The notes under the pieces: model-generated | What the model was told of the DNA's origin: nothing | What the model saw: only the letters and a program-made list of their open reading frames with translations | Databases searched by the model: none | Source: Candidatus Saccharimonadales bacterium | GTDB lineage: Bacteria; Patescibacteriota; Saccharimonadia; Saccharimonadales; UBA4665 | Assembly: GCA_035248005.1 (NCBI GenBank) | Contig: DATFHU010000006.1 | Coordinates: 17,546 to 81,545 of the forward strand | DNA: 64,000 bases | Direction of reading: 5' to 3' | Made by a program: the position numbers and the translations under genes | Shown: piece by piece, positions 2,448-32,565 of the stretch | Numbering within the stretch: position 1 is the first letter of the stretch | Layout of the letters: the number at the start of each line of letters is the position of its first letter

Positions 2448-2467
2448 GCGTTGTGCGTAGAGGGCCA
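2448..2467 (-). repeat. tRNA-Lys 3'-end-like cassette junction (K7)
   Basis: Minus strand TGGCCCTCTACGCACAACGC vs tRNA end TGGCCCTCCA and arm AGCATAAGC of K1/K2; 36 nt after the stop of 2503..3033. Confidence 0.65.
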
Positions 2468-2502
2468 TTACGGCCGTTATTGCAATAAATCCAGTCCGCA
2501 GG

Positions 2503-3033
2503 CTAAGGGCCCGAAGCACTGCCCCGTATCACTCTTAAATCTGAATAATCGTAAGGTACAAAGGAGTCTACCGTCTTATGCCATGTTTCCGATGAAAGGT
2601 TTTTCTGAAGGCCGGGTATTGTTATCCAAACTTCTGTGCCGTGTTTTATGAACCGAACATCGTACGAATAATATCCTTCTTTACTAGTACTGTGTGTGGT
2701 TAATTGGTAGCTTTGTCCCTTGGGGCTTGTAAGAGTTTGGCAGACGGTATGTGAACAGGAGTTGGTTATTGCACCGTCACCTTTCCATTGTGCTATCCAC
2801 GAATTAGGGTGATTAAGGTAAACATTTATATGTTTTTTGAACGATGGCAATAATCCCTTGTCCCGCAAGGTATAAAAGTTGCCATCTGTAGTTTTTAGTT
2901 GTGCGGGCAGTGTAGTTGGTTTAAGAGCTTGGAAGTCGGGAGTTTGACCATAACCAGTCCACACAAGATAGTATAGGGCTGCGATTATAAGCAAGACTGC
3001 TCCAGTAATAGCGACTCGTTTTAAGTTATTCAT
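2503..3033 (-). CDS. Hypothetical membrane-anchored protein
   Basis: ORF with N-terminal TM; ATG at 3033 chosen as the likely start. Confidence 0.7.
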   Translation of the reverse strand: MNNLKRVAITGAVLLIIAALYYLVWTGYGQTPDFQALKPTTLPAQLKTTDGNFYTLRDKGLLPSFKKHINVYLNHPNSWIAQWKGDGAITNSCSHTVCQTLTSPKGQSYQLTTHSTSKEGYYSYDVRFIKHGTEVWITIPGLQKNLSSETWHKTVDSFVPYDYSDLRVIRGSASGP

Positions 3034-3079
3034 CAATTTAATCCTATCAAATAAAAGGACTCTCAAGAATTTTTATGGC

Positions 3080-3097
3080 GCTTGTGCCTGGAGAGCA
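3080..3097 (-). repeat. tRNA-Lys 3'-end-like cassette junction (K6)
   Basis: Plus strand GCTTGTGCCTGGAGAGCA vs GCTTATGCTTGGAGGGTCA at 6930 and 7474; intergenic. Confidence 0.6.
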
Positions 3098-3164
3098 GGT
3101 GTGGGTGACGGTAGAAGACAGAGGTTATTTAGACGTAGTATCGTGATTTTGGTTGCAAGGGTTT

Positions 3165-4187
3165 TTAAGCGGACTGCTTAAAGTACTTTTTGTTGATACT
3201 AGAAGCTATTGCAGCAGAACCAAGCAGCCCAATAGCTGCTAAGACTAAGCTGGTGGTAATGCCGTACCCAGAGAAGTATTTAAACGAGATTGTAATAACG
3301 GTTAATACCAGGAAGAACGAAGCATTACCTAGCAAGTGCTTGTTCTGAGAAATAATACTAAGGTAAAAAATTCCAAACACGCCTGCAATTAGGATGCCCA
3401 ACCATAACACGCCGTAGTTGCCAAAACTTGATACATACATAGATAGCAGTGCCACAAATGCTGAAAAAGAATCGAATGAGCTACGGATTTTCTGCCTATC
3501 AGGGTTAATTTTAGCAACGACTCGAGCAGCGTACACCAGCAGTCCTGCAGAGAGGATGAATATCACAGACCATACATCCACTGAAACTTCGGTACCTTGT
3601 AAAAATCCGAAAAGTAATGCCGGAAAAGATGCTACGCATAGCAATATGCCCATAAGAAGCGTTAAGTCCCTCTTGATTAACCTATCGAAGCCAAGATGCA
3701 CTCCGCCAATAACTGCTAGCATAACTGCGCCAGGGATAAAATTAACTTCTTCGAAGCCACCGATAATTTCGTTCGTAATTATGTAGCCTCCTGCCACGAC
3801 TGACAACGATCCAGTCAATAGCAGGGAATTTATCAAGCCTTTTCTAACGTCGTTCTGTAAGGGTTTTTTGATTAGATAATAAGCTAAAGACCATAGGCCC
3901 ACGCCAACCCCTGCGCTTAAAAGAATATGTACCAGTGCATTGCCGTCATGCCACGACTGGACAATTACGGACATTATTGCCGAAAACAGTACAATCCCGG
4001 CAATGTAGAACATAACGTCAACTGCCGATAATTTGTCCGGCTTATTACCTTGCCCTGCTGTATGGGCAATGGCAGGTTCTGGCTGGTTTTGTTGATAGGC
4101 GACAAAGGGTTCGATATCGGCTTCCGTAATTACGCCGGCACGTAGACCTTCTTGTATGTCTCCTAAAATTTCCTGCTTACTTTTCAT
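3165..4187 (-). CDS. Polytopic membrane protein (DUF2157-like)
   Basis: 340 aa; N-terminal 'GLRAGVITEA' segment followed by about 10 TMs. Confidence 0.6.
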   Translation of the reverse strand: MKSKQEILGDIQEGLRAGVITEADIEPFVAYQQNQPEPAIAHTAGQGNKPDKLSAVDVMFYIAGIVLFSAIMSVIVQSWHDGNALVHILLSAGVGVGLWSLAYYLIKKPLQNDVRKGLINSLLLTGSLSVVAGGYIITNEIIGGFEEVNFIPGAVMLAVIGGVHLGFDRLIKRDLTLLMGILLCVASFPALLFGFLQGTEVSVDVWSVIFILSAGLLVYAARVVAKINPDRQKIRSSFDSFSAFVALLSMYVSSFGNYGVLWLGILIAGVFGIFYLSIISQNKHLLGNASFFLVLTVITISFKYFSGYGITTSLVLAAIGLLGSAAIASSINKKYFKQSA

Positions 4188-4714
4188 TTATTGACCCATC
4201 CTAAAAACGTAACCTCGTGTGTATGGTATGAACCGTTGTTTGTGAGCGCTACCTTTTTCTTTTTTGCCCCGTTTTTTAAGTACCAGCTTTCATCATAGTT
4301 GTCCCAAAACAGAAAACCACTGCCCGAGCTTCCTTTGTCTAACGTGTAGCCATCCGGTGATTTCGAAGAAGTATTAAGCGTATATCGCCTAGCTTCTTCC
4401 AGTGTCAGGCTTTTTGTTGCCTCGTTTGCGGAGTCATAGTACCGAAGACTTGCTGTGCGATCATAGTAGTCCTGGTCCGGGGCATTAGAAACGCCCCATG
4501 TGACATAGCCGTTAGTATCAACCGAATAACTGTCTCTGCATCGGTAGTCGTCGCAAACCGAGTAGATAAAGTCGTACTTTGGATTTGCCAAAAAACGTGG
4601 AACATAAATAACAAGCGCGGCAAAAACTGCTATTGCTGCCGGTATTGCAAAAAGTAAAAACAAGTCCTTAAAATAGCTATTACTTTTTGTTTTTTTGACA
4701 CTATTGTCTGCCAT
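4184..4714 (-). CDS. Hypothetical membrane-anchored protein
   Basis: Likely start ATG 4714 (MADNSVKK); one TM, then a soluble domain; 4-nt overlap with the next gene. Confidence 0.7.
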   Translation of the reverse strand: MADNSVKKTKSNSYFKDLFLLFAIPAAIAVFAALVIYVPRFLANPKYDFIYSVCDDYRCRDSYSVDTNGYVTWGVSNAPDQDYYDRTASLRYYDSANEATKSLTLEEARRYTLNTSSKSPDGYTLDKGSSGSGFLFWDNYDESWYLKNGAKKKKVALTNNGSYHTHEVTFLGWVNK

Positions 4715-4838
4715 GTATATATCTCTGGAAGAATTGTAGCATAGAAAACAGCCAAAATTGTTCATTGCGGAGCAACAATAACGTCGCAATCTTCGGGTTT
4801 GAAAGGTGTGCTTGTCTTCCTCTAGAGTTGATACCTGA

Positions 4839-4850
4839 TTTGTAGGGCTA
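4839..4850 (-). repeat. Degenerate tRNA-Lys 3'-end-like junction (K5, weak)
   Basis: Minus strand TAGCCCTACAAA, 9/11 match to TGGCCCTCCAA, 12 nt after the NUDIX stop. Confidence 0.4.
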
Positions 4851-4862
4851 ATCGTTTGCTGT

Positions 4863-5273
4863 TTAGATGTGAAGGCTAGGGTCAAAAACATCTAAAAATT
4901 TTTCGACATTCGGGAATAAGCTTTCATGGCGGGCTTCTTCGGCACTAAAATAGCGAAGCTCTTGGCATTCATCCGAAGGCTTGAAGTCCAGGTCTTTTAG
5001 TTTGATTTCGTAAATGACGTTAGCAATGAACGTGTCGCTGTTATGACGGCGGGTGGTAACAAAATACTTGGGTGATGAAGATACATAGGTGACTTCGAGT
5101 CCGGTTTCTTCGTTGATTTCGCGCTTTAGGCAAGCAATAGGGTCTTCGCCATGATCGAGCCCTCCACCAAGAAGCTCCCATTTATCGTTATCTTCTTTGG
5201 TCAACAAAAATCTGCCGGTTTCATCAATAACAAGGCCTTTCACGCTGACCCGGTAATAACAAGCGTTATTCAT
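4863..5273 (-). CDS. NUDIX hydrolase
   Basis: GGGLDHGEDPIACLKREINEETGL Nudix box. Confidence 0.93.
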   Translation of the reverse strand: MNNACYYRVSVKGLVIDETGRFLLTKEDNDKWELLGGGLDHGEDPIACLKREINEETGLEVTYVSSSPKYFVTTRRHNSDTFIANVIYEIKLKDLDFKPSDECQELRYFSAEEARHESLFPNVEKFLDVFDPSLHI

Positions 5274-5385
5274 CGAGCTAAGTGTAGCAAAAACTCTGGG
5301 AATCCACGAATTAAACCCTTAACAGAGTAATAAAATGTGGATTGAGTCAGAAGGATCGCTCATCCTTGCGGACGAGGCTTTTATT

Positions 5386-5396
5386 TTGGAGGGGCA
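5386..5396 (-). repeat. tRNA-Lys 3'-end-like cassette junction (K4)
   Basis: Minus strand TGCCCCTCCAA, 10/11 match to the tRNA end; followed by hairpins and a TTTGCTACACT -10-like box before the NUDIX ATG. Confidence 0.65.
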
Positions 5397-5465
5397 TAGT
5401 TGATGCGTTGCAACTGAAATTACCCTGTCGCACTCATCTATTTTTTTGCCCGAACGAGGCTGCCG

Positions 5466-5885
5466 CTATTGTTGTTCGCGCCAGCGAAGATGGGCTTGCA
5501 GTAGCTGGCTGGCATGGTCTTCGCTCGTTGCCGGCTGCCGTAAGGGTATGTCGTACACGAACAGCGTTGCACTTATTCGGCCCTCACTGTCTTTAGCGTA
5601 TGAAAAACCAAGAGTATACCTATCGGTAGCGGTACGGCGCTTACCCAGTGTATATTTTGCGGTGCGTGTGTGATAAAGTACCAGGCAGCCTGCATAGTGG
5701 TACTGTGGCGCAATAAGTTCGTCCCAACCCTGCAGTTTTAGCGATCTTGACCATTCCTCTGTGCCGGTGCCAAGTAATTTGAAACCGGTGTTGCGTGACG
5801 TAATTGTGTCCGGATCACTAAAGACCATGTTGACAAGCTGGTCCATAGTTTGCATAGGTTCTGATTCAGGGGTAGCCTCTGACAT
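5466..5885 (-). CDS. Hypothetical protein
   Basis: 139-aa ATG-initiated ORF, co-oriented with its neighbours; no recognised motif. Confidence 0.6.
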   Translation of the reverse strand: MSEATPESEPMQTMDQLVNMVFSDPDTITSRNTGFKLLGTGTEEWSRSLKLQGWDELIAPQYHYAGCLVLYHTRTAKYTLGKRRTATDRYTLGFSYAKDSEGRISATLFVYDIPLRQPATSEDHASQLLQAHLRWREQQ

Positions 5886-6214
5886 AAAAACTAGGGTCTG
5901 ACTCTATTCCTATAATGCATAAATCATATCATTTTATTGTGAAACTTCAAGTTACCTACAGGCCTGGCCTCTAACAGATAAGGAAAATGTGAATTGGGTT
6001 AGGAAGGATAGCCTAATTGTATAGGCTACCGGTCCGTACATGCCCTCGTTATAGCTTCACGCCGAATCGCCTTTATTATAGCCCTTACGGGTATATCGCT
6101 CGCTTACAGCTAAAGCCTACCGCTCGGCCAAGCGCAGAAAACGTAACTGTCCACTGGACAATTACGTCCGTCGACATTATGAATATCGACGGTTCGAGTC
6201 CTTTAACCTTGCCA

Positions 6215-6260
6215 TACAAAAAGCCCTACCTTGCAGTAGGACTATTTGTATGGAGGGCCA
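6215..6260 (-). repeat. tRNA-Lys 3'-end cassette junction (K3) plus terminator hairpin
   Basis: 6251-6260 TGGAGGGCCA is identical to tRNA 8825-8834; adjacent hairpin TACAAAAAGCCCTAC/GTAGGACTATTTGTA. Confidence 0.75.
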
Positions 6261-6322
6261 TCATACATACTAGCGCATCTCAACTACAAGCCTCGGCGAT
6301 GCATAGTCAGCCAGAGGTGATC

Positions 6323-6877
6323 TTACGTCTTGGCTTTTCTGAACCCCAGGATAAAAGAGCCGATGACGACCACCTCGTTTATAAATAACATAGCGTAATA
6401 GGTTGCAGAGCTGTCTGTTGAATCGGCAAATAGTCTTTGATCGATAAGAAATTTATTAAAGCTCGGCATAGACATAAGCGTACATAAAGTAAAACTGTTA
6501 TTGCTGTAAGCGCCGCTTATAAAAGGTTCGTCCCATATCAGACAATTCATATCAGGGCCTGCTGGCCCTCCCTCGCTAGTTATATATAGCCTGCTGCTGT
6601 AAACATATTGTGCCGAAAGAAGTACAGCAGCTAAGGAGAAGATAATGGGCACTACGACCCCCCTAAGCTGGGGTTTCTTCTTTACGATAGATATGACTAA
6701 CACGACAATGCTGGCTGTGGCCAAGTAGAACCACTGCCAACCAAATAGAATACTCCAGACATTTGTACTTTCCTCACCGACGATCAGGTGATAGAAGAGC
6801 AGCCCGCTTATAAGGACGGCTGTCAAAAAAGTCAATAATATAATCGCCCACATCAAGTGGGCCTTAGAACGTTTCAT
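6323..6877 (-). CDS. Hypothetical membrane protein
   Basis: About 4 TMs; likely start ATG 6877, just after the TTTGGTATACT -10-like box. Confidence 0.7.
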   Translation of the reverse strand: MKRSKAHLMWAIILLTFLTAVLISGLLFYHLIVGEESTNVWSILFGWQWFYLATASIVVLVISIVKKKPQLRGVVVPIIFSLAAVLLSAQYVYSSRLYITSEGGPAGPDMNCLIWDEPFISGAYSNNSFTLCTLMSMPSFNKFLIDQRLFADSTDSSATYYAMLFINEVVVIGSFILGFRKAKT

Positions 6878-6892
6878 AACCTTGAGTATACC

Positions 6893-6948
6893 AAACAAAA
6901 AGACTCCTCCAATGAGAAGTCTCTCAAGTGCTTATGCTTGGAGGGTCA
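6893..6948 (-). repeat. tRNA-Lys 3'-end-like cassette junction (K2) plus terminator
   Basis: Minus strand TGACCCTCCAAGCATAAGC (19 bp identical to K1), then hairpin AGACT..AGTCT and TTTTTGTTTG. Confidence 0.85.
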
Positions 6949-6972
6949 TCGCAGAACTTATTAGGGCTGAGC

Positions 6973-7421
6973 TTATAAAAAGCCGAGCTTTTGTAGTGTC
7001 AATTTAGTGTTTGGACCGATTTGTGCGTTTTCCAGTTCATCGGCTACATACCATTGAGCATCACCAAAGTCATCATTGAATCTTAGGCTCACTGCGCTTG
7101 CTTCCTCATGGAGCCTGACTGTAAAGTCATAAAACTCCATTTTCATAAGGACGACTTCATTTGCATCTTTGAGCGTTTTCTTACTTTCGCCAGTTGCAAC
7201 ATTGTCTAGTCGCGTGATGGTGGCGCCAGTGATATCTATGCCTGTTTCTTCAAATATTTCACGCATAACTGCCTGAAGCTTGCTTTCGCCTGCTTCAATT
7301 CCACCGCCTGGGATAACGAGCATCCCCTGATATGTACCGCCTTTTTGTTATGACCGAGTAGTACTTTTCCGTCACTCGAAAAAATAAAGGCACCTACGAT
7401 CTTGCGGCTTGCTGTTCTCAT
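6973..7421 (-). pseudogene. NUDIX hydrolase split by a 1-nt frameshift
   Basis: MRTASRKIVGAFIFSSDGKVLLGHNK then GGTYQGMLVIPGGGIEAGES...REIFEETG; adding one A to the A5 run (T5 at 7342-7346) restores a single ORF. Confidence 0.85.
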
Positions 7422-7435
7422 TTAGTAATGATAGC

Positions 7436-7492
7436 AAACAAAAAGACCTCAGATGAACTGCGGTCTTCATAACGCTTATGCTTGGAGGGTCA
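7436..7492 (-). repeat. tRNA-Lys 3'-end-like cassette junction (K1) plus terminator
   Basis: Minus strand TGACCCTCCAAGCATAAGC, hairpin AAGACC..GGTCTT, TTTTTGTTTG, then TATCAT and ATG. Confidence 0.85.
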
Positions 7493-7606
7493 CCGTGTGC
7501 ACTATCGCAGCCGAAGTCCAGCAGGGGTAAAGCATGTCTATTTCCTTATTAAGCTAAACTCTCACTTTACATATCGAAAAAGATTGTGGTAAGGGGGGTA
7601 TCTTAA

Positions 7607-8719
7607 TCATGCGTTAAAACGGGCCTCCGCCTTCCGCGCCAGATACTCCGCTTCCACGATAATCGTCGCAATAGCCAAACGCCCAGCCTCGGTCCTTAGC
7701 CCCTCTTCATTGGGCACATTGGGTGTCAGCGCACGCAGCAAGGCGTTCCCTAGTCCTACCGAACCATCCCCTCGGATTATGTAATCGAAAGCAAAGTAGT
7801 TATCTTCGCCATAGCGTGCCGCAAAAGCATTGCGGATGAGAGTGTGGGCTGCTGCAAATGCCGGTAATCTACCGAATGCCTGTTCGGGCGGCAGCAAATG
7901 CAGTTCGGTAGCGAACAGCTTGCCGATGTCACCCCGCGGATTATCTGCATCACCCTTCGGGTTGGTCAGCCTTAACTCAATAGCCGGAGTCGCCCCCGCC
8001 AGACTAAAGACACGGATAGCGTGGAGGTAGCCTGCCTTGGAGTTATCCGTTTCAATGCCGAGTTGAGCCATTAAATCAGTGGCCACCAACAGCGGTTCGG
8101 GCTGCTGTAAAACCGCGCCGCCAGCGAATGTTATCTCTGCAAGCTTTGCTTCAAGATCACGACCAGTAACAAGATGTGCGCGAGTGCCGGGGTGTTTGTT
8201 GATGTCGCTAATATCGGAAATGGTATCTGGTTTAAGGAATACCGCTTGCTCGGCAGCCCAGTCGCGCGCATGCAGTTCGGTAATAGTTTCTATGCCGTAA
8301 GATTCAAGGCCCATTCCTTGCAGGGCATGCCAAACATCCATGCGAGTTCTTAACGCGTAACGGGCTGAGTTGTAGCCGTCGCCATTGCGGTAAGCTGCCG
8401 GATCACCGCTCGGCCAGGTAATATCACGTAGACGCCAAGCGTAGCTACCGCACTCAAGAATACCGTTTACGGGCTCGGTGGCTCTGTATGGTGTGTATTT
8501 CTTGATTCGACCCGCAGGGCCGTCGGGCTGTCCGGACTCTTCGTAGGTAGCTGGGTCTTGCGCGTCGACAAAGAGAGTGTCTACACTCAACCTGGCTAGA
8601 ATTATGGGCAGCTCGGTCTGGCGGGTTCTAACTTGCTCCAGTCCATCTGGCATTAGATGAGCAGGTAACGGTGTGCGGCCTTCAATAACTGCGGCGGGTT
8701 GGGTTAGTCTTCCTGACAT
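7607..8719 (-). CDS. Hypothetical protein, possibly a divergent ATP-grasp fold
   Basis: Start ATG 8719 (MSGRLTQ); motifs FLKPD, VLQQP, AIRVF, FAFDYII..DG occur in ATP-grasp-like order. Confidence 0.5.
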   Translation of the reverse strand: MSGRLTQPAAVIEGRTPLPAHLMPDGLEQVRTRQTELPIILARLSVDTLFVDAQDPATYEESGQPDGPAGRIKKYTPYRATEPVNGILECGSYAWRLRDITWPSGDPAAYRNGDGYNSARYALRTRMDVWHALQGMGLESYGIETITELHARDWAAEQAVFLKPDTISDISDINKHPGTRAHLVTGRDLEAKLAEITFAGGAVLQQPEPLLVATDLMAQLGIETDNSKAGYLHAIRVFSLAGATPAIELRLTNPKGDADNPRGDIGKLFATELHLLPPEQAFGRLPAFAAAHTLIRNAFAARYGEDNYFAFDYIIRGDGSVGLGNALLRALTPNVPNEEGLRTEAGRLAIATIIVEAEYLARKAEARFNA

Positions 8720-8762
8720 ATAGTCATCATAGCAAACGAGACTAGAACTTTTTAACAGATAC

Positions 8763-8789
8763 AAAAAACACCTCCAAAACAGGGAGGTG
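8763..8789 (-). terminator. Intrinsic terminator downstream of tRNA-Lys
   Basis: CACCTCC/GGAGGTG stem with a T6 tail on the minus strand. Confidence 0.8.
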
Positions 8790-8824
8790 AAATCAGAACC
8801 TAAATTACATCTGTTAAAAATCCT

Positions 8825-8901
8825 TGGAGGGCCAGGAGGGACTCGAACCCTCGACATTCTGCTTAAGAGGCAGACGCTCTAACCAGCTGAGCTACTGGCC
8901 C
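8825..8901 (-). tRNA. tRNA-Lys(CTT)
   Basis: GGGCCAG..CTGGCCC acceptor stem, D-arm TAGCTCAGCTGGTTAGAGC, anticodon loop CTCTTAA, T-loop TTCGAGT, encoded CCA. Confidence 0.97.
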
Positions 8902-9159
8902 GTTTATATAAAACTAGGTGGTGAGTTAAAGTACTATTTGGCTATTAGTATGAAGTTTTTGCCGCCGAGAACAAAGCGTTTTGCATAAAACAAGATAAGC
9001 TTTATGTGCACCAGCTATACCACTAAAAATTTTTTAAGAACCATGCTATTCTAGCAAAATACCTCTGTTTTTGCAAATCAGGCGTGCTGTTTGATAAGCC
9101 GTTTTGTATGCTTCGCTGGCGTGGTACAATCAACTTCTATTATACTCTTAGAAATAGTT

Positions 9160-10011
9160 ATGGCAGAATTACAAGAACCCTTGGTGTTGGATTATGACTT
9201 GGAAGTAGGAGCACATACTCAGTGGTTGTTCAATAGGCTTGACGTTGTGCGTAATGTGCAAAGCGATTACTTTTACGGCTTAGCGGCCCGAGCAGGGGGC
9301 TTGGCGCGCGAACTTGGTGGACCTTGTGCGGTAGACGCCGTTGCCAATCAAGGGGTAATATATATAGAAAGCGGCCTATATCACTTCCGGCCTTCTAGCC
9401 GCCCGCAGGCAGCGAGAGTGCTGGGCGTACAGGGCATGGCATACTTGAAATCTGCGCTTACGCACCGGCCTGGCAGTGTCCTTGGTGGCGAGGGTTTAGA
9501 CAAGGCAAGACGTACGTTAGAAGCGGCCCGGCGGCTTGTTGCTCCGTTTGTAGTGAGCGAGCCTGGGTACCAGTTAAGTACTGTAAAGCGGCGAGAAGCA
9601 GAGGACACAAACGGCAATCCTGTACGGCGCCACATGACCGTAGGGCGCCATCAGCGCCACGAACTTATTAAAGGGTCCTTTGCACATGCCTTGAGCAGTT
9701 TGGGCCGGATCGCGTTAGCCGAAGGTAACGAAGCTGGTATTGCGCGGCTTGGTGAAGCACATGATGTGTATCTGGCAAGCAGCGACAAAGTAGGCCAGAC
9801 GCGCAATATTATGTATATGCTGATGAATGAGCGTGCTCGGGACAGCCGCGTTGGGCAATTAGGATATAATGGCCTTCGATTAACTTGGGCGTTGACGGCT
9901 GCGGCCGTCAGAGGCCAATTCCATGCATGGAAAGTAGCCGCCAGAATGGCGCCCCATGTATTGACCCAAAGCAGGGCACAGCGCGCCCGCACCGACTGGC
10001 GGGCTGTGTAA
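9160..10011 (+). CDS. Hypothetical helical protein
   Basis: Likely start ATG 9160 (MAELQEP); Ala/Arg-rich helical orphan. Confidence 0.65.
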   Translation: MAELQEPLVLDYDLEVGAHTQWLFNRLDVVRNVQSDYFYGLAARAGGLARELGGPCAVDAVANQGVIYIESGLYHFRPSSRPQAARVLGVQGMAYLKSALTHRPGSVLGGEGLDKARRTLEAARRLVAPFVVSEPGYQLSTVKRREAEDTNGNPVRRHMTVGRHQRHELIKGSFAHALSSLGRIALAEGNEAGIARLGEAHDVYLASSDKVGQTRNIMYMLMNERARDSRVGQLGYNGLRLTWALTAAAVRGQFHAWKVAARMAPHVLTQSRAQRARTDWRAV

Positions 10012-10020
10012 TCTGTTATA

Positions 10021-10839
10021 ATGCCCCTGATGAAACTGCTGAATGGCAAAGAGCTAGCCGATTATATTAAAGAACGCCAAGCACACGAGGTCCGGGCGCT
10101 TAAGCAGGCGTGGCACGTACAGCCAAAGTTGGCTATTATACTTACTATTGACCATCCCGTCATTAGTGTTTACGTGCGTATGAAAAAAAAGTATGGTGCT
10201 GACCTTTTGATTGACGTTGATATTCATACTGTAGAACAAGATGACACCCCAGCACTTATAGACCGACTAAATAAAGATGATACCGTTCACGGTATCATTG
10301 TGCAGCTCCCGCTTGAACGTCCAGAAGAAACCGACTCACTGGTTAATCTGGTCACTCCCGAAAAAGATGTAGACGCTTTGGGACGAGACGCGCAGTTCGA
10401 TCCAGCAACGCCCATGGCTATCCTTTGGCTGCTCGCCGGGTATAATATTGAGCTCGCCGGAAAGAAAGTACTGCTGATTGGCCGCGGCAAATTGGTAGGT
10501 ACGCCACTGGAGAGAATGCTAAAAGGCTCCGGCATAGATGTTTGGAGCGTTGACCGCGAAACCAAAGACCTAAAAGCCGAAACCCTGAAAGCAGATGTTA
10601 TTATTACTGCCACTGGCAGTCCGGCTATTTTATACTCCAATATGATAAAGCAAGGTGCTGTAGTGGTAGACGCCGGCGTTGCAGGCGAAGAGGGCAAAAC
10701 AGTCGGCGACCTTGCATCAGAAGTATATGAGCGCGATGACCTAACCCTTACTCCGGCCAAAGGCGGTGTCGGTCCCCTGACTGTATGCGCCCTCTTCGAA
10801 AACGTCATCCGCGCCGCCCGCCGCACAGTAAAGCAATAG
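10021..10839 (+). CDS. folD: Bifunctional methylenetetrahydrofolate dehydrogenase/cyclohydrolase
   Basis: LLNGKELA, YVRMK, IIVQLPL, KDVD, VVDAG and TPAKGGVGPLT motifs. Confidence 0.95.
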   Translation: MPLMKLLNGKELADYIKERQAHEVRALKQAWHVQPKLAIILTIDHPVISVYVRMKKKYGADLLIDVDIHTVEQDDTPALIDRLNKDDTVHGIIVQLPLERPEETDSLVNLVTPEKDVDALGRDAQFDPATPMAILWLLAGYNIELAGKKVLLIGRGKLVGTPLERMLKGSGIDVWSVDRETKDLKAETLKADVIITATGSPAILYSNMIKQGAVVVDAGVAGEEGKTVGDLASEVYERDDLTLTPAKGGVGPLTVCALFENVIRAARRTVKQ

Positions 10840-10879
10840 CTTCTTTGTCTTGGCTTGAAAGTGTATTATAAAAGCGTAT

Positions 10880-11737
10880 ATGATAATGCCTCTAGAAAGT
10901 GGTACTATTGCCGGGGCTATGACTTTGGATCTCATTGACCGAACCGATAGGTTGGGCGAACAGGAAGTATTGCCCCATTTGGCCATTATAGAAGGCATTG
11001 GACACACTAGTCTTTCCGGAGAAGTAAACGCCTACGTGCAAGGGAAGCAGAAGGTGGCTATGGGGGTAGGTGTAGAAACCGGCCATGTACGAGTGCCTAC
11101 GGTGGAATTAGAGGAATGGATTGCAATGATGAACGACCAGCCATATACTGACGCCATCATTGTTGAGGAGCCCTTGCCTGGTTGTAGTCGGGCGGAAACG
11201 GCAGTAATACTAGGTATGCTGGATGATAACAAGGCCGTTGACAACCAAGGCCCGAACAGGTTGTGGGGTATGGGCGCGACATCAGAAGCTACGGTAACGC
11301 TTCTTGATTGGCATGGACATACCGGCGAAGGCCGGCATGTTTTAATTGTCGGCGACGGCAAGGTGGGCGGGCCACTGGCTAACGTATATAACAGCCCCGA
11401 ACGCAAGGTTAAGGATTTATCAGTCGTAAACATACATAACAGAGAAAAACTACCCGCTCTGGCGCTCGCAGCTGACATGGTAATTGTAGCCACGGGTTCG
11501 CCTAATACGCTAACGCCCGATATGGTGCGTAAAGAGCACGTTATCGTCGGCGTGGGCGCACGGGACATACATCCAGATGTCCGCGCGCTAACCCATACTC
11601 CTTTCTGGGTCACCCCCGCCAAAGGCGGTGTCGGTCCCTTAACGATCCGCACGTTGCTTGGCAGGGTTGTCGACCTAGCGGAAGGCAAACCGCCCCGTCA
11701 TCCTTTCGCTACCCAGCTCGCCGAATCCATGCAGTAG
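10880..11737 (+). CDS. Divergent FolD-like paralog
   Basis: YVQGK, IIVEEPLP, KAVD, ATGSP and TPAKGGVGPLT; start uncertain. Confidence 0.85.
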   Translation: MIMPLESGTIAGAMTLDLIDRTDRLGEQEVLPHLAIIEGIGHTSLSGEVNAYVQGKQKVAMGVGVETGHVRVPTVELEEWIAMMNDQPYTDAIIVEEPLPGCSRAETAVILGMLDDNKAVDNQGPNRLWGMGATSEATVTLLDWHGHTGEGRHVLIVGDGKVGGPLANVYNSPERKVKDLSVVNIHNREKLPALALAADMVIVATGSPNTLTPDMVRKEHVIVGVGARDIHPDVRALTHTPFWVTPAKGGVGPLTIRTLLGRVVDLAEGKPPRHPFATQLAESMQ

Positions 11738-23193: not shown

Positions 23194-23268
23194 GGCCCCA
23201 TCGTCTAATGGTTAGGACACCGGGTTTTCATCCCGGCAACCGGGGTTCGAATCCCCGTGGGGTCACCA
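23194..23268 (+). tRNA. tRNA-Glu(TTC)
   Basis: GGCCCCA..TGGGGTC acceptor stem, CCGGG-TTTTCAT-CCCGG anticodon arm, TTCGAAT T-loop, encoded CCA. Confidence 0.97.
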
Positions 23269-23307
23269 ATTAATAATTTATATTTTGTCGAACTCTCGCC
23301 TGATGTA

Positions 23308-23336
23308 AAAAGCTCCTGGTCTATCCCGGAGCTTTT
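23308..23336 (+). terminator. Terminator after tRNA-Glu
   Basis: AAAAGCTCC/GGAGCTTTT inverted repeat. Confidence 0.7.
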
Positions 23337-23395
23337 GTCTTAACATCATTACGATCTGGTGATGAGTTTGACCCCCCTTGGGGTACAATAATTAT

Positions 23396-23746
23396 ATGAA
23401 GATCAAGAGGCCATTCAGTTGTGGGCTTGGTCCCGCGTTCGATCTGGTGGGCGGTCGCTGGAAAGCCATAATTCTATGGGAGCTAAGCCAGCAGGAACTT
23501 CGCTTTAGCGAACTCAGGGAACGGGCCGAAGGCATTACCGAAAAAATGCTACTGCAACAATTACGTGAGATGGAGCGGCATGGATTAATCGAGCGACACG
23601 ACTATAACGAAAAGCCCTTGCGTGTTGGCTACCGCCTGACCAATGAAGGGCGCATCGTCAATGAATTACTAATCCCGCTTGCCGAATGGGGCAAAGAGTA
23701 TGCCTACAGAATAGACATTACTGGCAATTACGTGCATGCCGACTAG
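23396..23746 (+). CDS. HxlR-family winged-helix transcriptional regulator
   Basis: VGGRWKAIILWEL, RFSELR, ITEKMLLQQLREME and Y.LT..G motifs. Confidence 0.92.
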   Translation: MKIKRPFSCGLGPAFDLVGGRWKAIILWELSQQELRFSELRERAEGITEKMLLQQLREMERHGLIERHDYNEKPLRVGYRLTNEGRIVNELLIPLAEWGKEYAYRIDITGNYVHAD

Positions 23747-24135
23747 TTATTTTTAAATATTTCGATCATATTGCCGTCAACATCGGTTGCCAGGAAAAAT
23801 TTGCCATTGAGGGAATCCATCGGGATTACTTCTGACACAATTTTACCTCCTGCAGCTTCGATTTTCCGGCCCGCAGCCTCCAAACTATCGACCTCGACCA
23901 GCACAACTGGGTGTTTTATGCCGGTAGCCCTTTTAATAATACAGCCGTTTACGCGTCCGCGCTCCTTGGCCACATAGTCGTCATTACTTGGGGAATTGAG
24001 GGCAATCTTAAAATCGTAATCTGGGTTCTTTTCTCTAATATCAGGCAGCATGTCCCATCCGAAGGCCTGATTGTAAAATGCAGCGGCCTTTTCTACGTCG
24101 TCGCTTGGGATGCTAAACCATGTTACTGGATTCAT
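23743..24135 (-). CDS. VOC/glyoxalase family protein
   Basis: PVTWFSIPSDD..KAAAFY..AFGW; D.DGN.IEI. Confidence 0.9.
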   Translation of the reverse strand: MNPVTWFSIPSDDVEKAAAFYNQAFGWDMLPDIREKNPDYDFKIALNSPSNDDYVAKERGRVNGCIIKRATGIKHPVVLVEVDSLEAAGRKIEAAGGKIVSEVIPMDSLNGKFFLATDVDGNMIEIFKNN

Positions 24136-24307
24136 ACTTGCTCTCCTGTACTATTAATTCAGACTGTATTCTCATTGTAGATAAGTTTTGACAGTGGTCA
24201 CAGTACTGTAAGGCTCCGTAGCGTTCATGTAACATATGTTATTACTCCGTCGATATTGACTATGCCCAAAGCCTTTACCTTACGCTCAAGTTCTTCTAAA
24301 CCTCAAA

Positions 24308-24371
24308 CAAGGTTTCGACCTGACTCGCTCTGTGATTCACCATTTCGTACCACAAATATTTTTTCGAACTC
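24308..24371 (+). repeat. tRNA-Glu array junction G1
   Basis: CAAGGTTTCGACCTGACTCGCTCTGTGATTCACCA, 33/35 identical to G5; TCGAACTC motif downstream, as after the tRNA. Confidence 0.85.
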
Positions 24372-24458
24372 CGGCATAATTCGGAGTTTTTATGTTGCTC
24401 CTTAGGTAGATTGGTCTACTTGACTCGTAATGAGCTAATAGTTATACTAGTAGATACT

Positions 24459-24725
24459 ATGAGTAATTACACAGCAACTATTATCAAGACAGGAAATTCG
24501 TATGCGCTTCGCGTTCCTAAGTCGTATGTGGAGAACGCTAAGTTAGAATTAGGCCAAAAGGTACAGATTGGCGCACCTGTGGCGCTCCCAAAAGATTACG
24601 ACCCTGAGGCTGTCAAAAAGGCAGTAAGAAACCTTCAGGCCGTAGGTGCGTTCCGTTCAATCAAAGACCCTGTAGCCTGGCAACGCGAAATACGCAAAGA
24701 CCGCCCTCTGCCTGGAAGAAGCTAG
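24459..24725 (+). CDS. AbrB/MazE-type antitoxin (VapB-like)
   Basis: IIKTGNSYALRVPK AbrB motif; DPVAWQREIRKDR C-terminus; upstream of a PIN toxin. Confidence 0.85.
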   Translation: MSNYTATIIKTGNSYALRVPKSYVENAKLELGQKVQIGAPVALPKDYDPEAVKKAVRNLQAVGAFRSIKDPVAWQREIRKDRPLPGRS

Positions 24726-24733
24726 GATAAATC

Positions 24734-25096
24734 ATGTTGTGTTTTGACACGAACGTTATCATTTACCTTGGTAATCAGATGCTTGACGAAAGTATTATCG
24801 GCAAAGAACCTATTTGTTATGCCTCGGCTAGTCTCATAGAGGCGCTTGGTTACCCCGACATCTTAGCAGCAGAAGAGCAGCGTATTAAAGAGCTCTTCGA
24901 TACGATGATCGAGATACCTCTTAATGCATCTATAATCCAGGCAGCAGTGCGGCTGAGGCAGCTTAAAAGAATGAGTCTGGGTGATGCTATTGTTGCAGCA
25001 ACAGCATTGGAAAATGACTGTGTGCTCTGGACGGCAAATATTGAGGATTTTGCACATATTGACGGATTACGTCTGTATAACCCTCTAAAGACCTAA
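24734..25096 (+). CDS. vapC: PIN-domain toxin
   Basis: FDTNVIIY, E, LGDAIVAATA and T.N..DF PIN residues. Confidence 0.9.
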   Translation: MLCFDTNVIIYLGNQMLDESIIGKEPICYASASLIEALGYPDILAAEEQRIKELFDTMIEIPLNASIIQAAVRLRQLKRMSLGDAIVAATALENDCVLWTANIEDFAHIDGLRLYNPLKT

Positions 25097-25105
25097 TCAC
25101 TCTCT

Positions 25106-25181
25106 AGTGCCTTCAACTGTAGCTCAATATATTCCAACTCACCGAAGAAGGTTTCGGCCTGTTTCGCTGTTAGGTTCACCA
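25106..25181 (+). repeat. tRNA-Glu array junction G2
   Basis: 76 bp, 65/76 identical to G6 (36230-36305), ends in GGTTCACCA. Confidence 0.85.
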
Positions 25182-25267
25182 TTGCAATTATTACATTACC
25201 AACAGATGGGAAAGTTTCAGATTTTATTTTCTGGAACTTTTTGTTTTGACCTCTACCCCTGTTATTT

Positions 25268-25294
25268 CGGGGTTCGATCTCCCGTAGGCAGCCA
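25268..25294 (+). other. Isolated tRNA 3' fragment (T-arm + acceptor strand + CCA)
   Basis: CGGGG-TTCGATC-TCCCG-TAGGCAG-CCA; no D or anticodon arm upstream. Confidence 0.6.
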
Positions 25295-25496
25295 ACAATA
25301 GTTTGTCGAACACCTTGACCACGGTAAAATTGTTCTATGCATATACTCATAACCGGTGGCAGCAAGGGCATTGGCCTTGAGGCGACTAAACTCGGGATGG
25401 CAATAAACTTTGTAGGCTAGGCGTAGCTTTGACTTACCCTACAATTAATTAGCACAATTGCTCGCCATACGTTCATATGGGCAGCTCCAGACTACC

Positions 25497-25754
25497 CTAC
25501 CCGTACAACTGACTGCGTGTACCGAGCGTATCAAAAATCGCTTCGTTTTCTTTTTGTAAATATAGTGCTCGGATATCGCCTGTAACATCAATGCTACGAT
25601 ATTCTTTATATTTTCCTTTGAGCTGATGATTACGCAAAAGGGGATGGAGGGGATTATTACTAAAAATGGTGAGCCGTTCCAATAGTTTCTTGCGAGCTTC
25701 CGGGTCTAATTTTTTTGCCTGTTTGACGAAGTTTTTCGAATACGAGATTGTCAT
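25497..25754 (-). CDS. RelE/YafQ-family mRNA interferase toxin
   Basis: I.YSK.F.KQ.KKL, L..H.L.G.Y..YRSI.V.GD.R. Confidence 0.9.
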   Translation of the reverse strand: MTISYSKNFVKQAKKLDPEARKKLLERLTIFSNNPLHPLLRNHQLKGKYKEYRSIDVTGDIRALYLQKENEAIFDTLGTRSQLYG

Positions 25755-26032
25755 TACAGCTCTTTAGCTAGGAAATCGAGTGCTTTTTTGTTGGATTCAA
25801 ATGAATGGTAGTCGCCAGCTTCTATCTCTTTTCTAGAGGCTGTTAGCTGTTTGGCTGTCCTATCGTTTGGCACTTCAGGAACATCAAAAACAACACTTTG
25901 CTCGGCCGTAAAACGCCGTAGTTCATTGTTAAGAATTGCGCTGATGCTAATACCCAACTTATCGGCAGTTTCTTGCGCCAACTTTTTGAGTTTAGGATCA
26001 GTTTTGAGGTTTATGACTGCATAGTTACTCAT
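25754..26032 (-). CDS. RelB/DinJ-type antitoxin
   Basis: INLKTDPKLK..A...ADKLGISIS ribbon-helix-helix; PN motif; upstream of the toxin. Confidence 0.85.
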   Translation of the reverse strand: MSNYAVINLKTDPKLKKLAQETADKLGISISAILNNELRRFTAEQSVVFDVPEVPNDRTAKQLTASRKEIEAGDYHSFESNKKALDFLAKEL

Positions 26033-26154
26033 ACCAAAAGTATATACCTTTGGTATAGTAGTTGTCAATAATCGTAAGCAACATAAATCATATTGCCATT
26101 AATTTCAACGACACCCAAAGCCTTAAGTTTAGGATCGATATCTAAAGCATCAAG

Positions 26155-26189
26155 CAAGGTTTCGACCCGACTCGTCCTATAGTTAAACA
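26155..26189 (+). repeat. tRNA-Glu array junction G3 (degenerate core)
   Basis: CAAGGTTTCGACCCGACTCGTCCTATAGTTAAACA, 27/35 identical to G1. Confidence 0.75.
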
Positions 26190-26371
26190 TTGCAATTATT
26201 GCATCATTACAGATTAAGAAGAGTTCCATGATTTATTTTGGACTTTTTGTTTAATTCTTATCTATTATTTGAGTTCGATTCCCGGGAGGGTGATAGCGCA
26301 TGCCTATAGGGTTTCCATTACTATGAAATTATGATTGAGTTAGTATCAAATAGTTATTATGATGATTAATC

Positions 26372-27076
26372 ATGGCTAAACTTATTCTTATTCGTCATGG
26401 CCGCTCACGTGGCAATGCTAATAAAGGAATTATCCAAGGCAGTGGTCCTGACCCTGCCAATACCTTAGACGATCTTGGTGAGCGTCAAGCGCACCGGCTT
26501 GGTCAAACTTTTGCGGATCGGGAGATATCTCCTGCGGTCGTCTGGTCGTCTCCGCTGGCGCGCGCCCGGCAAACCTGTGATACTGCACTGGAAGTAATGG
26601 GTTGTAAACTACCCGTAACTGAAGACGATCGGTTGCGCGAAATGTGTAAGGGTCTGGCGGGTTTACCGGGCGGCATGGAGGGGCGGCCTCGTGGCGACGT
26701 TGAAACGCCGCAGTACTGGCTAGAGTACAAAAAGCAGGGATGGCAATTCCGTCATGGCTCACTACAAAGCGGAGGTGAAACTGCTGAAGAAGTCGGCATC
26801 CGCACTCTGTCCGCCATGAACGATATTGCCGATCACGTGGGCAGTAACGCAACCGCGTTAGTTTTTACTCATGGTCAAGCCATACGTTTCGGCATAGGTG
26901 CAGCGTTGGATTGGCCGGATATACAACAGGTAAATACTGAGTATATGTTGGGAAACTGTGAAGGTATTGTTATGGGCCGCGGTACCCGCAATCTGTCGTG
27001 GCATGTTGCCAGCCGCATTGCGTGCGCAGGCAGCCTAAACGAAACTATTATACCAGGCAGCACTGACCGGCATTAA
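26372..27076 (+). CDS. Histidine phosphatase family protein
   Basis: LIRHG, WSSPLARARQT, LREM and FTHG motifs. Confidence 0.92.
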   Translation: MAKLILIRHGRSRGNANKGIIQGSGPDPANTLDDLGERQAHRLGQTFADREISPAVVWSSPLARARQTCDTALEVMGCKLPVTEDDRLREMCKGLAGLPGGMEGRPRGDVETPQYWLEYKKQGWQFRHGSLQSGGETAEEVGIRTLSAMNDIADHVGSNATALVFTHGQAIRFGIGAALDWPDIQQVNTEYMLGNCEGIVMGRGTRNLSWHVASRIACAGSLNETIIPGSTDRH

Positions 27077-27335
27077 TTTTCCAACATTCTTACAATATTT
27101 TCCAGCCGTTTAACCGCTGTATAGCTTGTCAACTCGTTCACTCATTTGCAAACTAGGCCACATACAAAGTGTCCATAATTCCAGGAATTTATTTGCGAAA
27201 TTATATACTGGCTAGCAACCGATGCGCCAAAACAAATTATTGGCCCCATAATAGATATTATGGGGGAGCCTACCTTCATTCTCGGACAAGTGGTGATGCA
27301 ATTTTGCTGCTCCATATGTGGTGTAAAATTTTTGT

Positions 27336-28184
27336 ATGAGCTATGAAAATTTAACACCTCTTACTCAAGAGGAAATAGAGCGTATAGGGGTAAAGGAGTC
27401 CGAGCCTGGCTATCCGCCCCTGTCGAATAGACTGATTGTTCCTCGTGACCAATGGGATCAAATGGTAGCGGAGAATAGTATAATTATTCCGGATGATCCG
27501 GCTTATCACATCACTGATCATCCTAATCGTCGTAATGTTGCAGAAGATCAGCGGGATGATATCGCTACCGTTGGTCGGCCTATGTCTGCAGGGCTGGTAG
27601 CCTACTGGAAATCACTCGGTCTGCATGTAGATACTGCGGGCCGGCCGCTGCATCCGCGTGCAGCTGAGGTCTTGCCAGTGACAGGCATGTATACCGGCCC
27701 GGGCTGGAGTTATAGGTATGGCCCACAACGAATCGGCAATCTAGGCTTGCGTCGCACACGAAACAGTAGGGTGGAGTATGCGGTTGTTGCCGTACAGCGC
27801 AGAACTGTGATGTGGGGTTTGCCTGGCGGTTATGCCGAAATGGGCGAAACTCCAAGGCAAGCTGCTTTTCGGGAGGGCAGTGAGGAAGCAGGTGTTGACT
27901 TGCGCAAACAGGAACTTCAACGTCTTGTCGGACGGCTGGTGTTAAGAGACGTGCTTGCAAGGTTAAAGTGTTCTCCTAAAGACACATTACATGCTTGGCT
28001 GGAGGAGTGGTTTACAATCGTGCATAGCCCGGAAAACCCAGCCCTGGAAGGAGTTGAACTGAGGAACGGCGACACGGAAGTGCTTGAGATGGGCTGGATG
28101 GAGGCTGCGGAGATTGTAAGCCGTAAAGATTTTCTTGGCACTCACAAGAGAGTAGTCAGAGCACATGAGGGCATGGGCCAATGA
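27336..28184 (+). CDS. NUDIX hydrolase, ADP-ribose pyrophosphatase (NUDT9)-like
   Basis: GRPLHP...TG..G.G..YRYGP N-terminal motif and W.LPGG...GE....AAFRE.SEE box. Confidence 0.8.
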   Translation: MSYENLTPLTQEEIERIGVKESEPGYPPLSNRLIVPRDQWDQMVAENSIIIPDDPAYHITDHPNRRNVAEDQRDDIATVGRPMSAGLVAYWKSLGLHVDTAGRPLHPRAAEVLPVTGMYTGPGWSYRYGPQRIGNLGLRRTRNSRVEYAVVAVQRRTVMWGLPGGYAEMGETPRQAAFREGSEEAGVDLRKQELQRLVGRLVLRDVLARLKCSPKDTLHAWLEEWFTIVHSPENPALEGVELRNGDTEVLEMGWMEAAEIVSRKDFLGTHKRVVRAHEGMGQ

Positions 28185-28285
28185 GTGAATTTCAGCTTGG
28201 GAATGAACCGGTACAAAGTGTCATCATATGGCGTCATACACTTTTTAATAGATAAGCAGGCTTAACCGGGGAGGCGGCAAAAGAA

Positions 28286-28963: not shown

Positions 28964-29040
28964 TTTTCTGCCAGTGCTATTGCTCGGACGATATATTCAA
29001 TTCTCGCAAGCCTTTGTTCATTTGTTCTAGACCCGCCCAT

Positions 29041-29110
29041 AAGGTGTTCCAATTCAGACTCCACAGGGTCACCAAGTTGAAACCATATATTTTATCTTAT
29101 CGAACTCTCG
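29041..29110 (+). repeat. tRNA-Glu array junction G4
   Basis: GGGTCACCA (29066-29074) is identical to the tRNA end; TCGAACTCTCG (29100-29110) is identical to 23288-23298. Confidence 0.8.
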
Positions 29111-30871: not shown

Positions 30872-30912
30872 GGCGCTATATAATTTTGGGTCAAGTTCCT
30901 CTAAAGCTTCAG

Positions 30913-32528: not shown

Positions 32529-32565
32529 GCGTACTCACCCTATTATGTTATAGTGGCGCTTATTA

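Follow-up and report, generated by a model that had tools for sequence, protein, structure and literature searches.

The 64,000-nt stretch analysed here, which we call the window, comes from a Candidatus Saccharimonadales bacterium (GenBank assembly GCA_035248005.1, contig DATFHU010000006.1, positions 17,546 to 81,545 of the forward strand) and almost certainly contains a site-specific array of gene cassettes, for which the 3′ end of a tRNA-Lys(CTT) gene serves as anchor. Downstream of this tRNA, small units of one or two genes follow each other, closed by short sites in which a conserved arm of about 20 nt precedes a repeat of the final 10 nt of the tRNA. As the mechanism of the array we favour a large serine recombinase (LSR) acting in trans, a reading to which we give a probability of roughly 0.7. 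The source genome amounts to 1.50 Mb in 22 contigs and is 97% complete, and the window lies on a contig of 96 kb.

The tRNA-Lys(CTT) gene encodes its CCA, and its final 10 nt (TGGCCCTCCA, 8825-8834) are the core common to all junctions and act as an attB-type docking site. A preliminary description of this DNA had claimed that this end recurs downstream on the tRNA strand, and our counts bear this out: the window holds 4 matches to TG(G/A)CCCTCCA, including the tRNA, where chance predicts 0.16 (none of 100 shuffles attained 4); they all lie on the minus strand within 2.6 kb (6251-8834), and the whole genome (1.5 Mb) holds just 6. Among the copies, numbered K1 to K7 with increasing distance from the tRNA (Table 1), K1, K2 and K3 carry exact cores on the tRNA strand, K1 and K2 share a 19-mer (TGACCCTCCAAGCATAAGC), K3 is an exact 10-mer and K4 has one mismatch, all as first described. 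The distal copies fared unequally. K6 and K7 are indeed degenerate versions of the K1/K2 type, K6 (3080-3097) being, on reading its sequence, a decayed K2 right-flank module from which the hairpin has been deleted, while K5 (4839-4850) is weak and unconvincing alone. Furthermore, the repeated unit is not only the tRNA end, as had been supposed. Alignment of the copies downstream of tRNA-Lys from 20 relatives revealed, 5′ of the core, the conserved arm of about 20 nt (AGTTGCGATAGCGTCTAC-NN; consensus across relatives AGTTGCGATA(A/G)CGTCTAC-NN), which the downstream copies possess and the tRNA itself lacks. It is present in the window in full or modified form at K1, K3, K4 and K7, and shortened at K2.

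To assess the specificity of this motif, we used profiles built from other genomes. A position weight matrix (PWM) trained on the sites of six relatives alone and scanned over the 1.5-Mb genome placed K3, K1, K2 and K7 at ranks 1, 2, 3 and 5, which is the enrichment at this locus that the preliminary description had anticipated. When an nhmmer profile made from 103 sites of other genomes was used, the sole matches with E < 1 in the whole genome were K1 (0.0044), K4 (0.0085) and K3 (0.042). As both profiles find the sites of this locus, the arm-plus-core motif is specific to it, and a generic terminator motif is rejected as an explanation, since the genome-wide scans place arm plus core at the tRNA-Lys locus only. 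The right flank of the core at K1 and K2, AGCATAAGC, is also found behind other tRNA-like ends elsewhere in the genome (C8:66716, C8:67548, C17:80410 and C21:36685). It represents the quasi-palindromic GCWTAWGC element of cassette left ends, which occurs in two registers 4 nt apart; we considered these registers as attB-type and attP-type half-sites and dropped the idea, as their order along the arrays gave it no clean support.

The most frequent class of junction (type (i), see below) has a dyad-symmetric consensus, in which 13 of 22 positions match around the centre TGG^CCC (47 of 5000 shuffles reach this score). Judged from sequence, arm, core and next left end together compose a site of about 47 bp, whose centre falls in the acceptor stem. 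It has the layout of an LSR attP, an imperfect dyad of ~40-50 bp in which crossover takes place centrally, and from this layout we infer the position of the crossover. A Xer/dif site, as exploited by integrative mobile elements exploiting Xer (IMEX) and by pdif modules, was rejected on architecture: the inverted motifs GCGATAGCG and CGCTTATGC stand 21 nt apart and the array sites are direct repeats, unlike the Xer/dif layout of two inverted arms of ~11 bp with a spacer of 6-8 bp.

Comparison with relatives shows that the cassettes are exchanged. In 20 of 20 relatives, divergence downstream starts from the first base after the CCA, and the folD region upstream is syntenic; content thus varies between relatives with breakpoints at the core, as had been predicted. 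Forty of the 50 cross-genome homology blocks have one end no more than 90 nt from a site in both genomes, and identity drops to background beyond the sites, as in blocks of 83% identity over 771 nt (families f1 and f33), 88% over 708 nt and 87% over 445 nt. One such case involves the window, whose interval from the K1 core to the K2 core (7492-6939) is 76% identical over 557 nt to a relative of another family (G026:C42, L074 2827-3380). There, the shared Nudix cassette occupies the interval from tRNA-Lys to the first site. The homology stops at either core; left of the shared core one finds the K1 arm in the window and the body of the tRNA in G026. The G026 copy of the Nudix gene is intact (150 aa), and the window copy is one A short near 7345. 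These alignments show the cassettes as discrete units exchanged between genomes, with breakpoints at the core. This part of the preliminary description is supported; the insertion in trans that it coupled to it would follow only from the arguments given below. As for the folD region, the window carries two tandem folD-like genes upstream of the tRNA (10021-11737) with a mutual identity of just 31%, the first of which almost every relative keeps beside tRNA-Lys; for the second, a 45% homologue was found in a single relative.

The system extends over the order. We sampled 301 genomes from 218 genera and searched them for the 30-nt arm-plus-core pattern with up to 2 mismatches, which was found in 59 genomes and 54 genera, a reversed-pattern control giving 0 matches. 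Downstream of tRNA-Lys the sites form arrays of 2-7 copies, all on one strand (five copies in G025, four each in G142 and G026, seven in G127). The 198 site-to-site intervals have a median of 706 nt (range 208-3793 nt), and 81% of the open reading frames (ORFs) within them are in the orientation of the tRNA. An exact scan with the 30-nt pattern of one genome per species (185,579 species) yielded 54 stretches, all of which, but for two tiny contigs, are assigned to Saccharibacteria, Saccharimonadia, Patescibacteria or an unnamed bacterium, and the relatives sharing these sites carry the labels Candidatus Saccharibacteria, Saccharimonadia or Saccharimonadales. The motif had no matches in IMG/VR. 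Cargo, relatives included, comprises Nudix and HAD hydrolases, small kinases, toxin-antitoxin parts and membrane proteins. In the window, every ORF from 8719 down to 216 has the orientation of tRNA-Lys, an M23 peptidase and other genes continuing the cargo series beyond the cassettes listed in Table 1, and the whole 96-kb contig is devoid of tyrosine or serine recombinase genes, so that the claim of co-oriented cargo without a recombinase holds.

At the 103 distinct sites, recurrent classes can be recognised in the sequence 3′ of the core. Type (i), at 36 of them, consists of ATMCGCTTATGCTTAAA, a hairpin (ACAGAGG...CCTCTGT or CTCCTC...GAGGAG) and TTTTTGTTATAMT, with an ATG a few bases on. Type (ii), at 13 sites and the type of K1 and K2, consists of AGCATAAGC(R)YTAT, a hairpin and TGnTAnnnT. 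Type (iii), seen at K3, is a bidirectional terminator followed by a convergent unit of ~190 nt, and type (iv), directly behind the tRNA of the window, has a TTAACAGATAC-type flank. Given these recurrent classes, a unit supplies a terminator for what lies upstream, its own promoter, one or two genes, and the arm for the next core. The hairpins and -10 boxes first reported after the copies are thus found again: terminator-like hairpins were located after the tRNA, K2 and K3, and the hairpin of K1 and the TGnTAnnnT boxes were recognised by reading the sequence. The gradient read into the copies, with the newest cassettes nearest the tRNA, stands in so far as K5-K7 are the most decayed, and fails in that K3 and K4 outscore K2.

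Table 1. Features of the tRNA-Lys(CTT) array, in window coordinates.
Feature	Position	Strand	Description
tRNA-Lys(CTT)	8825-8901	minus	ARAGORN; Rfam tRNA 74.4 bits
Left-end module of cassette 1	8720-8824	minus	flank AGGATTTTTAACAGATG; T-run terminator hairpin 8769-8789
Promoter-like element of cassette 1	8726-8755		TTAAAA-18-TATGAT with TG
Cargo of cassette 1	7607-8719	minus	370-aa protein, no Pfam or PHROG family
K1 site	7483-7512	minus	arm GGCTGCGATAGTGCACACGG 7493-7512; exact core TGACCCTCCA 7483-7492; PWM rank 2
Cassette 2	6939-7482	minus	left module AGCATAAGC 7474-7482, hairpin, TGCTATCAT; Nudix gene; K2 site
Nudix gene of cassette 2	6973-7422		Pfam NUDIX 2.3e-11
K2 site	6949-6959 (arm), 6939-6948 (core)		short arm AAGTTCTGCGA; exact core TGACCCTCCA
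Cassette 3	6251-6938	minus	left module AGCATAAGC 6930-6938; terminator 6898-6925; TGGTATACT; 184-aa membrane protein 6323-6877
K3 site	6261-6285 (arm), 6251-6260 (core)		arm AGTTGAGATGCGCTAGTATGTATGA with insertion; exact core; PWM rank 1
X unit and bidirectional terminator	6040-6250	plus	terminator 6222-6243; convergent unit of ~190 nt, CCA end 6212-6214
Cassette 4	5387-5992	minus	37-nt repeat 5956-5992; promoter-like site; 139-aa protein 5466-5885; K4
K4 site	5397-5415 (arm), 5387-5396 (core)		arm AGTTGCAACGCATCAACTA; core TGCCCCTCCA
Cassette 5	4839-5386	minus	intact Nudix hydrolase 4863-5273, 136 aa, Pfam NUDIX 4.8e-18; weak K5 remnant
Cassette 6	3080-4838	minus	176-aa protein 4184-4714; 340-aa membrane protein 3165-4187 (weak DUF2157); K6
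Cassette 7	2448-3079	minus	176-aa protein 2503-3033; K7 site; PWM rank 5
K7 site	2468-2487 (arm), 2458-2467 (core-like)		arm TATTGCAATAACGGCCGTAA; core-like TGGCCCTCTA; right flank CGCACAACGC 2448-2457

The enzyme is most likely a tRNA-Lys-specific clade of LSRs carried on integrative elements of 5-16 kb. In two relatives (G005 and G036) an LSR gene on the opposite strand immediately follows tRNA-Lys, the tRNA end in antisense forming its final codons. Searching the order, we found that all relatives at least 47% identical to the G005 LSR adjoin tRNA-Lys (ctt or ttt), the ORF ending inside the tRNA in antisense; this arrangement is found in relatives (G005, G044 twice, G055, G186, G222, G269, G316, G320 and G121) and not at the window locus. 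More distant LSRs adjoin tRNA-Asn or tRNA-Trp. Members of the family, of which the protein collection contains more than 1000, have Resolvase, Recombinase and Zn_ribbon domains. In all six elements examined (G005, G186, G044, G222, the G316 junction and contig P0004), the AGTTGC arm stands at the first core beyond the LSR or at the junction that the LSR reads into. Contig P0004 has a 7-kb element behind tRNA-Lys, with an LSR, a DnaD-like protein and a helix-turn-helix/ImmA-type pair, which ends in a degenerate arm and core and is followed by a two-gene cassette with a clean arm and core; G044 likewise has an LSR element and then cassettes. The LSR of G316 follows a cassette, and its ORF runs into an AGTTGC arm. 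On contig P0049 (2.7 kb, no tRNA), an LSR ORF with the tail WRAIVHAIST crosses P′, core and arm, a junction that is ambiguous, as it could be a free attP or an LSR behind a cassette. These genomes show a link between LSR, tRNA-Lys and arm.

Other recombinases are poor candidates. The search of the source genome that the preliminary description had called for returned 7 LSRs and only two tyrosine recombinases (PF00589), a Xer-like one on contig C10 and an integrase on C4, with none of either kind on the contig of the window (C6). The resident integrase (C4:58781) was rejected as the enzyme because it is part of a 38.7-kb element at tRNA-Val, and the relatives each have a single Xer-type tyrosine recombinase, far from tRNA-Lys. 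No recombinase recurs among the cassette ORFs of the site-to-site intervals. Among the resident LSR genes, four of the seven end inside tRNAs in antisense, namely Gly-gcc (C17:105378-107054), Ala-ggc (C4:72879-74717), Arg-gcg (C20:32755-34419) and Phe-gaa (C17:121098-122831), and the far end of the element at tRNA-Arg, which bears a different arm, probably lies 7.7 kb downstream.

The rationale of the proposed mechanism is as follows. A cassette is a unit of 0.2-3.8 kb with one or two genes. At its left end it has a terminator serving the sequence upstream along with a promoter for its own gene, and its right end is the arm followed by the copy of the final 10 nt of the tRNA. T-arm and acceptor of tRNA-Lys would serve as attB, and arm, core and left end as an attP-like site whose right half would restore the tRNA end. 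The LSR would be supplied by the 5-16-kb elements at the same tRNA, in which the recombinase is antisense across the tRNA end and the far end bears the same arm. The seven units of the window would then be recombinase-less cassettes, captured in trans or left behind by LSR elements, stacked through repeated recombination at the core, presumably via circular intermediates, and later partly decayed (K5-K7). Action in trans is invoked because the genome lacks a tRNA-Lys LSR and because 9 of 19 array-bearing genomes lack any serine recombinase.

Several observations weigh against catalysis by this LSR clade. None of the 7 LSRs of the source genome is more than 36% identical to the tRNA-Lys clade and none is on the contig of the window; the 9 array-bearing genomes without any serine recombinase include two at 99% completeness (G127 and G025); and motif and clade do not co-occur above chance, the motif being present in 3 of 11 genomes with the LSR against a background of 20% in the 301-genome sample. 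It follows from the missing clade here, the many LSR-free arrays and this lack of co-occurrence that the cassettes outlive the enzyme or move in another way. To our knowledge, moreover, canonical LSRs do not recombine attP with attL, which means that stacking needs a relaxed choice of site, as in the Ccr enzymes. K1 and K2 have TGA in place of TGG, which in the tRNA would disrupt the acceptor pair C4-G69. The circular cassettes that the preliminary description expected among reads did not appear: the sole public run holding the locus, the source metagenome at ~10x depth, contained no circular cassettes, deletion variants or joints. Nor was a free element found in IMG/VR, where a single LSR query had no match; alignment of the LSRs to IMG/VR gave four proviruses at other tRNAs and no free attP.

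Three other explanations have to be weighed against an LSR acting in trans. The units could be fossils of repeated integrations of whole LSR elements, stripped of recombinase and backbone until right-end cargo and attR scars were left, and never moved as small units. The complete 5-16-kb elements at the same tRNA with the same arm at their end, an LSR C-terminal pseudogene fragment beside tRNA-Lys in one relative (G035), the decay of the distal sites K5-K7 and the absence of LSRs from half of the array genomes would all fit. This account nevertheless leaves a single cassette recurring across families, bounded by sites on both sides and at varying array rank (at the tRNA or behind others), without an explanation; the conserved left ends with terminator and promoter (ATMCGCTTATGCTTAAA, hairpin and TTGTTATAMT at 36 of 103 sites) occupy the place where LSR elements hold the 3′ end of the recombinase; and the arrays of 20 relatives contain no LSR genes or fragments, nor do the seven units of the window contain an LSR gene. 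We consider it improbable. We also judge it unlikely that natural transformation and homologous recombination turn over the cassettes, with the junctions of ~47 nt and the tRNA serving as portable homology and a recombinase required, if ever, only when the sites arose. In favour of this, Saccharibacteria show natural competence (PMC10633639), arrays persist and cassettes are shared in genomes without any serine recombinase, and exchange between repeats would likewise put breakpoints at a conserved repeat. Yet 30-47 bp are short for RecA-type exchange, the dyad symmetry of the site is centred in the core, the site is the end of LSR elements, and conservation of the arm in more than 50 genera suggests recognition by a protein over mere homology.

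Far less credible still is an element acting at the RNA level, in which arm and core would be a mimic of the tRNA end in the 3′ untranslated region of the cassettes, involved in processing, stability or termination, and the modules would be paralogous intergenic sequences. Such a role would account for the position of each site, downstream of a stop codon with a terminator hairpin close behind, for its location on the sense strand of 81% of cassette ORFs and for the AGCATAAGC-plus-terminator module behind other tRNA-like ends on C8, C17 and C21. However, no partner strand for the acceptor helix exists upstream of the core and there is no Rfam match, and the hypothesis leaves unexplained the homology breakpoints exactly at the core between genomes, the restriction to the region downstream of tRNA-Lys and the presence of this arm at the distal end of LSR elements.

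The closest published system to the array, under the LSR reading that we prefer, is the set of ssrA-specific islands of Dehalococcoides with the large serine recombinase DsiB (McMurdie et al. 2011, PMC3146451). In both, tandem units lie downstream of a tRNA-like gene, boundaries are direct repeats of the 3′ end of the target gene (20 bp there, 10 nt here), and beside the repeat stands a conserved element-side motif which cannot be aligned to the target (of 15 bp there and ~20 nt here). Overlapping attL, the LSR gene runs antisense into the target, here in relatives, and some Dehalococcoides islands lack the integration module and were proposed to be cis-mobilisable (PMC3146451). The differences are that the target is ssrA there and tRNA-Lys here; that islands of 10-30 kb are replaced by mostly single-gene units (median 706 nt) with their own terminator and promoter; that most units and many whole genomes here lack a recombinase; that no second small serine recombinase of the DsiA or CcrA type was seen beside the LSR; and that the lineage is Saccharimonadia, of the candidate phyla radiation (CPR). 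The staphylococcal cassette chromosome (SCC/SCCmec) at rlmH offers a second parallel. LSRs (CcrAB/CcrC) accumulate multiple cassettes behind a single conserved gene, at its 3′ end; cassettes that lack a recombinase (ACME, COMER, defence) have att sites on either side and are mobilised in trans; and site choice is relaxed enough for stacking (PMC11470126). There, in contrast, the target encodes a protein, cassettes measure tens of kb, and excision and circularisation have been demonstrated experimentally, whereas here both are presumed. Like these tandem islands, it combines repeats of the target 3′ end with an element-side motif, and recombinase-less units flanked by the same sites.

The tycheposons of Prochlorococcus, which likewise build islands at tRNAs by repeated integration that pushes older elements outward (10.1101/2020.12.28.424599), resemble the array in the partial tRNA repeats and degenerate remnants within the islands and in the streamlined genomes with few other mobile elements. 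They differ in that 910 of 937 tycheposon-type elements carry a tyrosine recombinase (10.1101/2020.12.28.424599), in that they hold integration and replication modules plus cargo of up to 10 kb or more, and in that descriptions of them mention no conserved arm of non-tRNA sequence that closes single-gene units. No tyrosine recombinase is present at the locus here or in 19 relatives, and such elements as occur at tRNA-Lys encode an LSR.

Integrons possess an IntI tyrosine recombinase beside the array, an attI site and a Pc promoter; their cassettes are promoterless and their attC sites are imperfect inverted repeats, conserved in structure and not in sequence. With integrons and with clusters of attC sites lacking integron integrases (CALINs) the array shares co-oriented one-gene cassettes that are each closed by a recombination site, content that varies between relatives, arrays without a nearby integrase and, among the cargo of relatives, toxin-antitoxin cassettes. 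Contrary to integrons, it has no IntI, attI or Pc (contig C6 has no PF00589 match), its sites are conserved in sequence over 30-47 nt, contain the 3′ end of a tRNA and, as judged from the site sequence with no attC model run, are not attC, and its cassettes bring their own promoter and terminator. As the likely enzyme is an LSR, "integron-like" denotes an analogy of function and not membership. A literature search found no published account of tRNA-anchored cassette arrays in Saccharibacteria, and what is new here is the combination of single-gene units having their own terminator and promoter, a short site conserved in sequence, a tRNA as target and the spread through a CPR class.

At somewhat under even odds, we tentatively entertain a broader reading in which the array is a gene-capture platform present throughout the lineage, performing the function of an integron by means of an LSR. 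Small circles with arm, core and left module would be complete attP sites, inserted in trans by the LSR of a visiting element, and the parallel stacks at other tRNAs (here Glu, Lys-TTT and Leu) would each have their own LSR clade and arm. Because such a circle would carry its own terminator and promoter, the new gene would be expressed at once, and the tRNA would be repaired. Saccharibacteria have tiny genomes and few recognised mobile elements, and a tRNA-anchored store of exchangeable single-gene cassettes with their own expression signals, if true, would explain how their gene pool stays flexible; it would also mean that integron-like gene capture arose again with a different class of enzyme. 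Since the site is short and conserved and the docking tRNA is present in every member, the tRNA-Lys LSR with its ~47-bp site is a candidate integration tool for CPR genetics, Saccharibacteria being naturally competent (PMC10633639). The 30-nt signature, in turn, is a simple marker to delimit accessory cassettes in metagenome-assembled genomes of Saccharibacteria.

Within the array of the window, the Nudix gene of cassette 2 has lost one nucleotide of an A-run near 7345, resulting in a frameshift; with a depth of ~10x, the loss (7341-7349) could reflect a frameshifted pseudogene or a homopolymer error. The Nudix hydrolase of cassette 5 has a homologue of 61% amino acid identity in G019 (L027, +1736), directly preceded by arm-like sequence and ACCCTCCA, and the gene pair of cassette 6 recurs in G020 (L032, +7624..9227) at 53% and 65% identity. 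In cassette 4, the 37-nt TTATCTGTTAGAGGCCAGGCCTGTAGGTAAC (5956-5992) 5′ of the 139-aa gene has copies of 89-95% identity on C8 (four), C14 and C19 and resembles an operator or a promoter element in shared use; a related word, TTAACAGATAC, is found next to many tRNA ends.

The X unit behind K3 has homologues in L026, L039, L072, L074 and L084 and recurs as a unit in the arrays of relatives, with up to 3 per array. In relatives it is closed on the tRNA strand by an exact copy of 18-22 nt of the tRNA-Lys 3′ end, not by the AGTTGC arm. Compensatory changes in its alignment support one hairpin only, NNNTGCC-ACT-GGCANNN, and it matches no Rfam family. It may be an RNA gene, an element resembling a miniature inverted-repeat transposable element (MITE) or an att relic. 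A tRNA, tmRNA or known RNA in the region 5886-6325 was rejected, ARAGORN giving a forced intron model only and Rfam nothing; ARAGORN found no tmRNA gene in the 97%-complete genome.

Related features occur at other tRNAs. Downstream of tRNA-Lys(TTT) (C8:63703-67600), two junction modules lie on the same strand at 3.0 and 3.8 kb, in which another arm (GTATATAACTTACTTCCTYGGT) is combined with a degenerate core (GGACCTCCA or TGACCTCCA) and AGCAT(A/T)A(A/G); a similar arm is found in G036 (L040, near +9560). A 33-nt copy of the 3′ end of tRNA-Val(tac) lies 38.7 kb downstream of that tRNA (C4:20685-59490) and adjoins the only non-Xer tyrosine integrase of the genome (C4:58781-59272), an interval that is probably a separate integrated element. 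At tRNA-Thr(ggt) (C22:19135-19410), an exact 33-nt copy of the 3′ end lies 188 nt downstream, and the interval contains a TGCCACTG...GGCA palindrome resembling the X units at tRNA-Lys. Finally, in the window itself (23194-36305), tRNA-Glu(TTC) has one core copy, AGGGTCACCA, 5.8 kb downstream, with a flank like that of the tRNA (..TCGAACTCTCG..).

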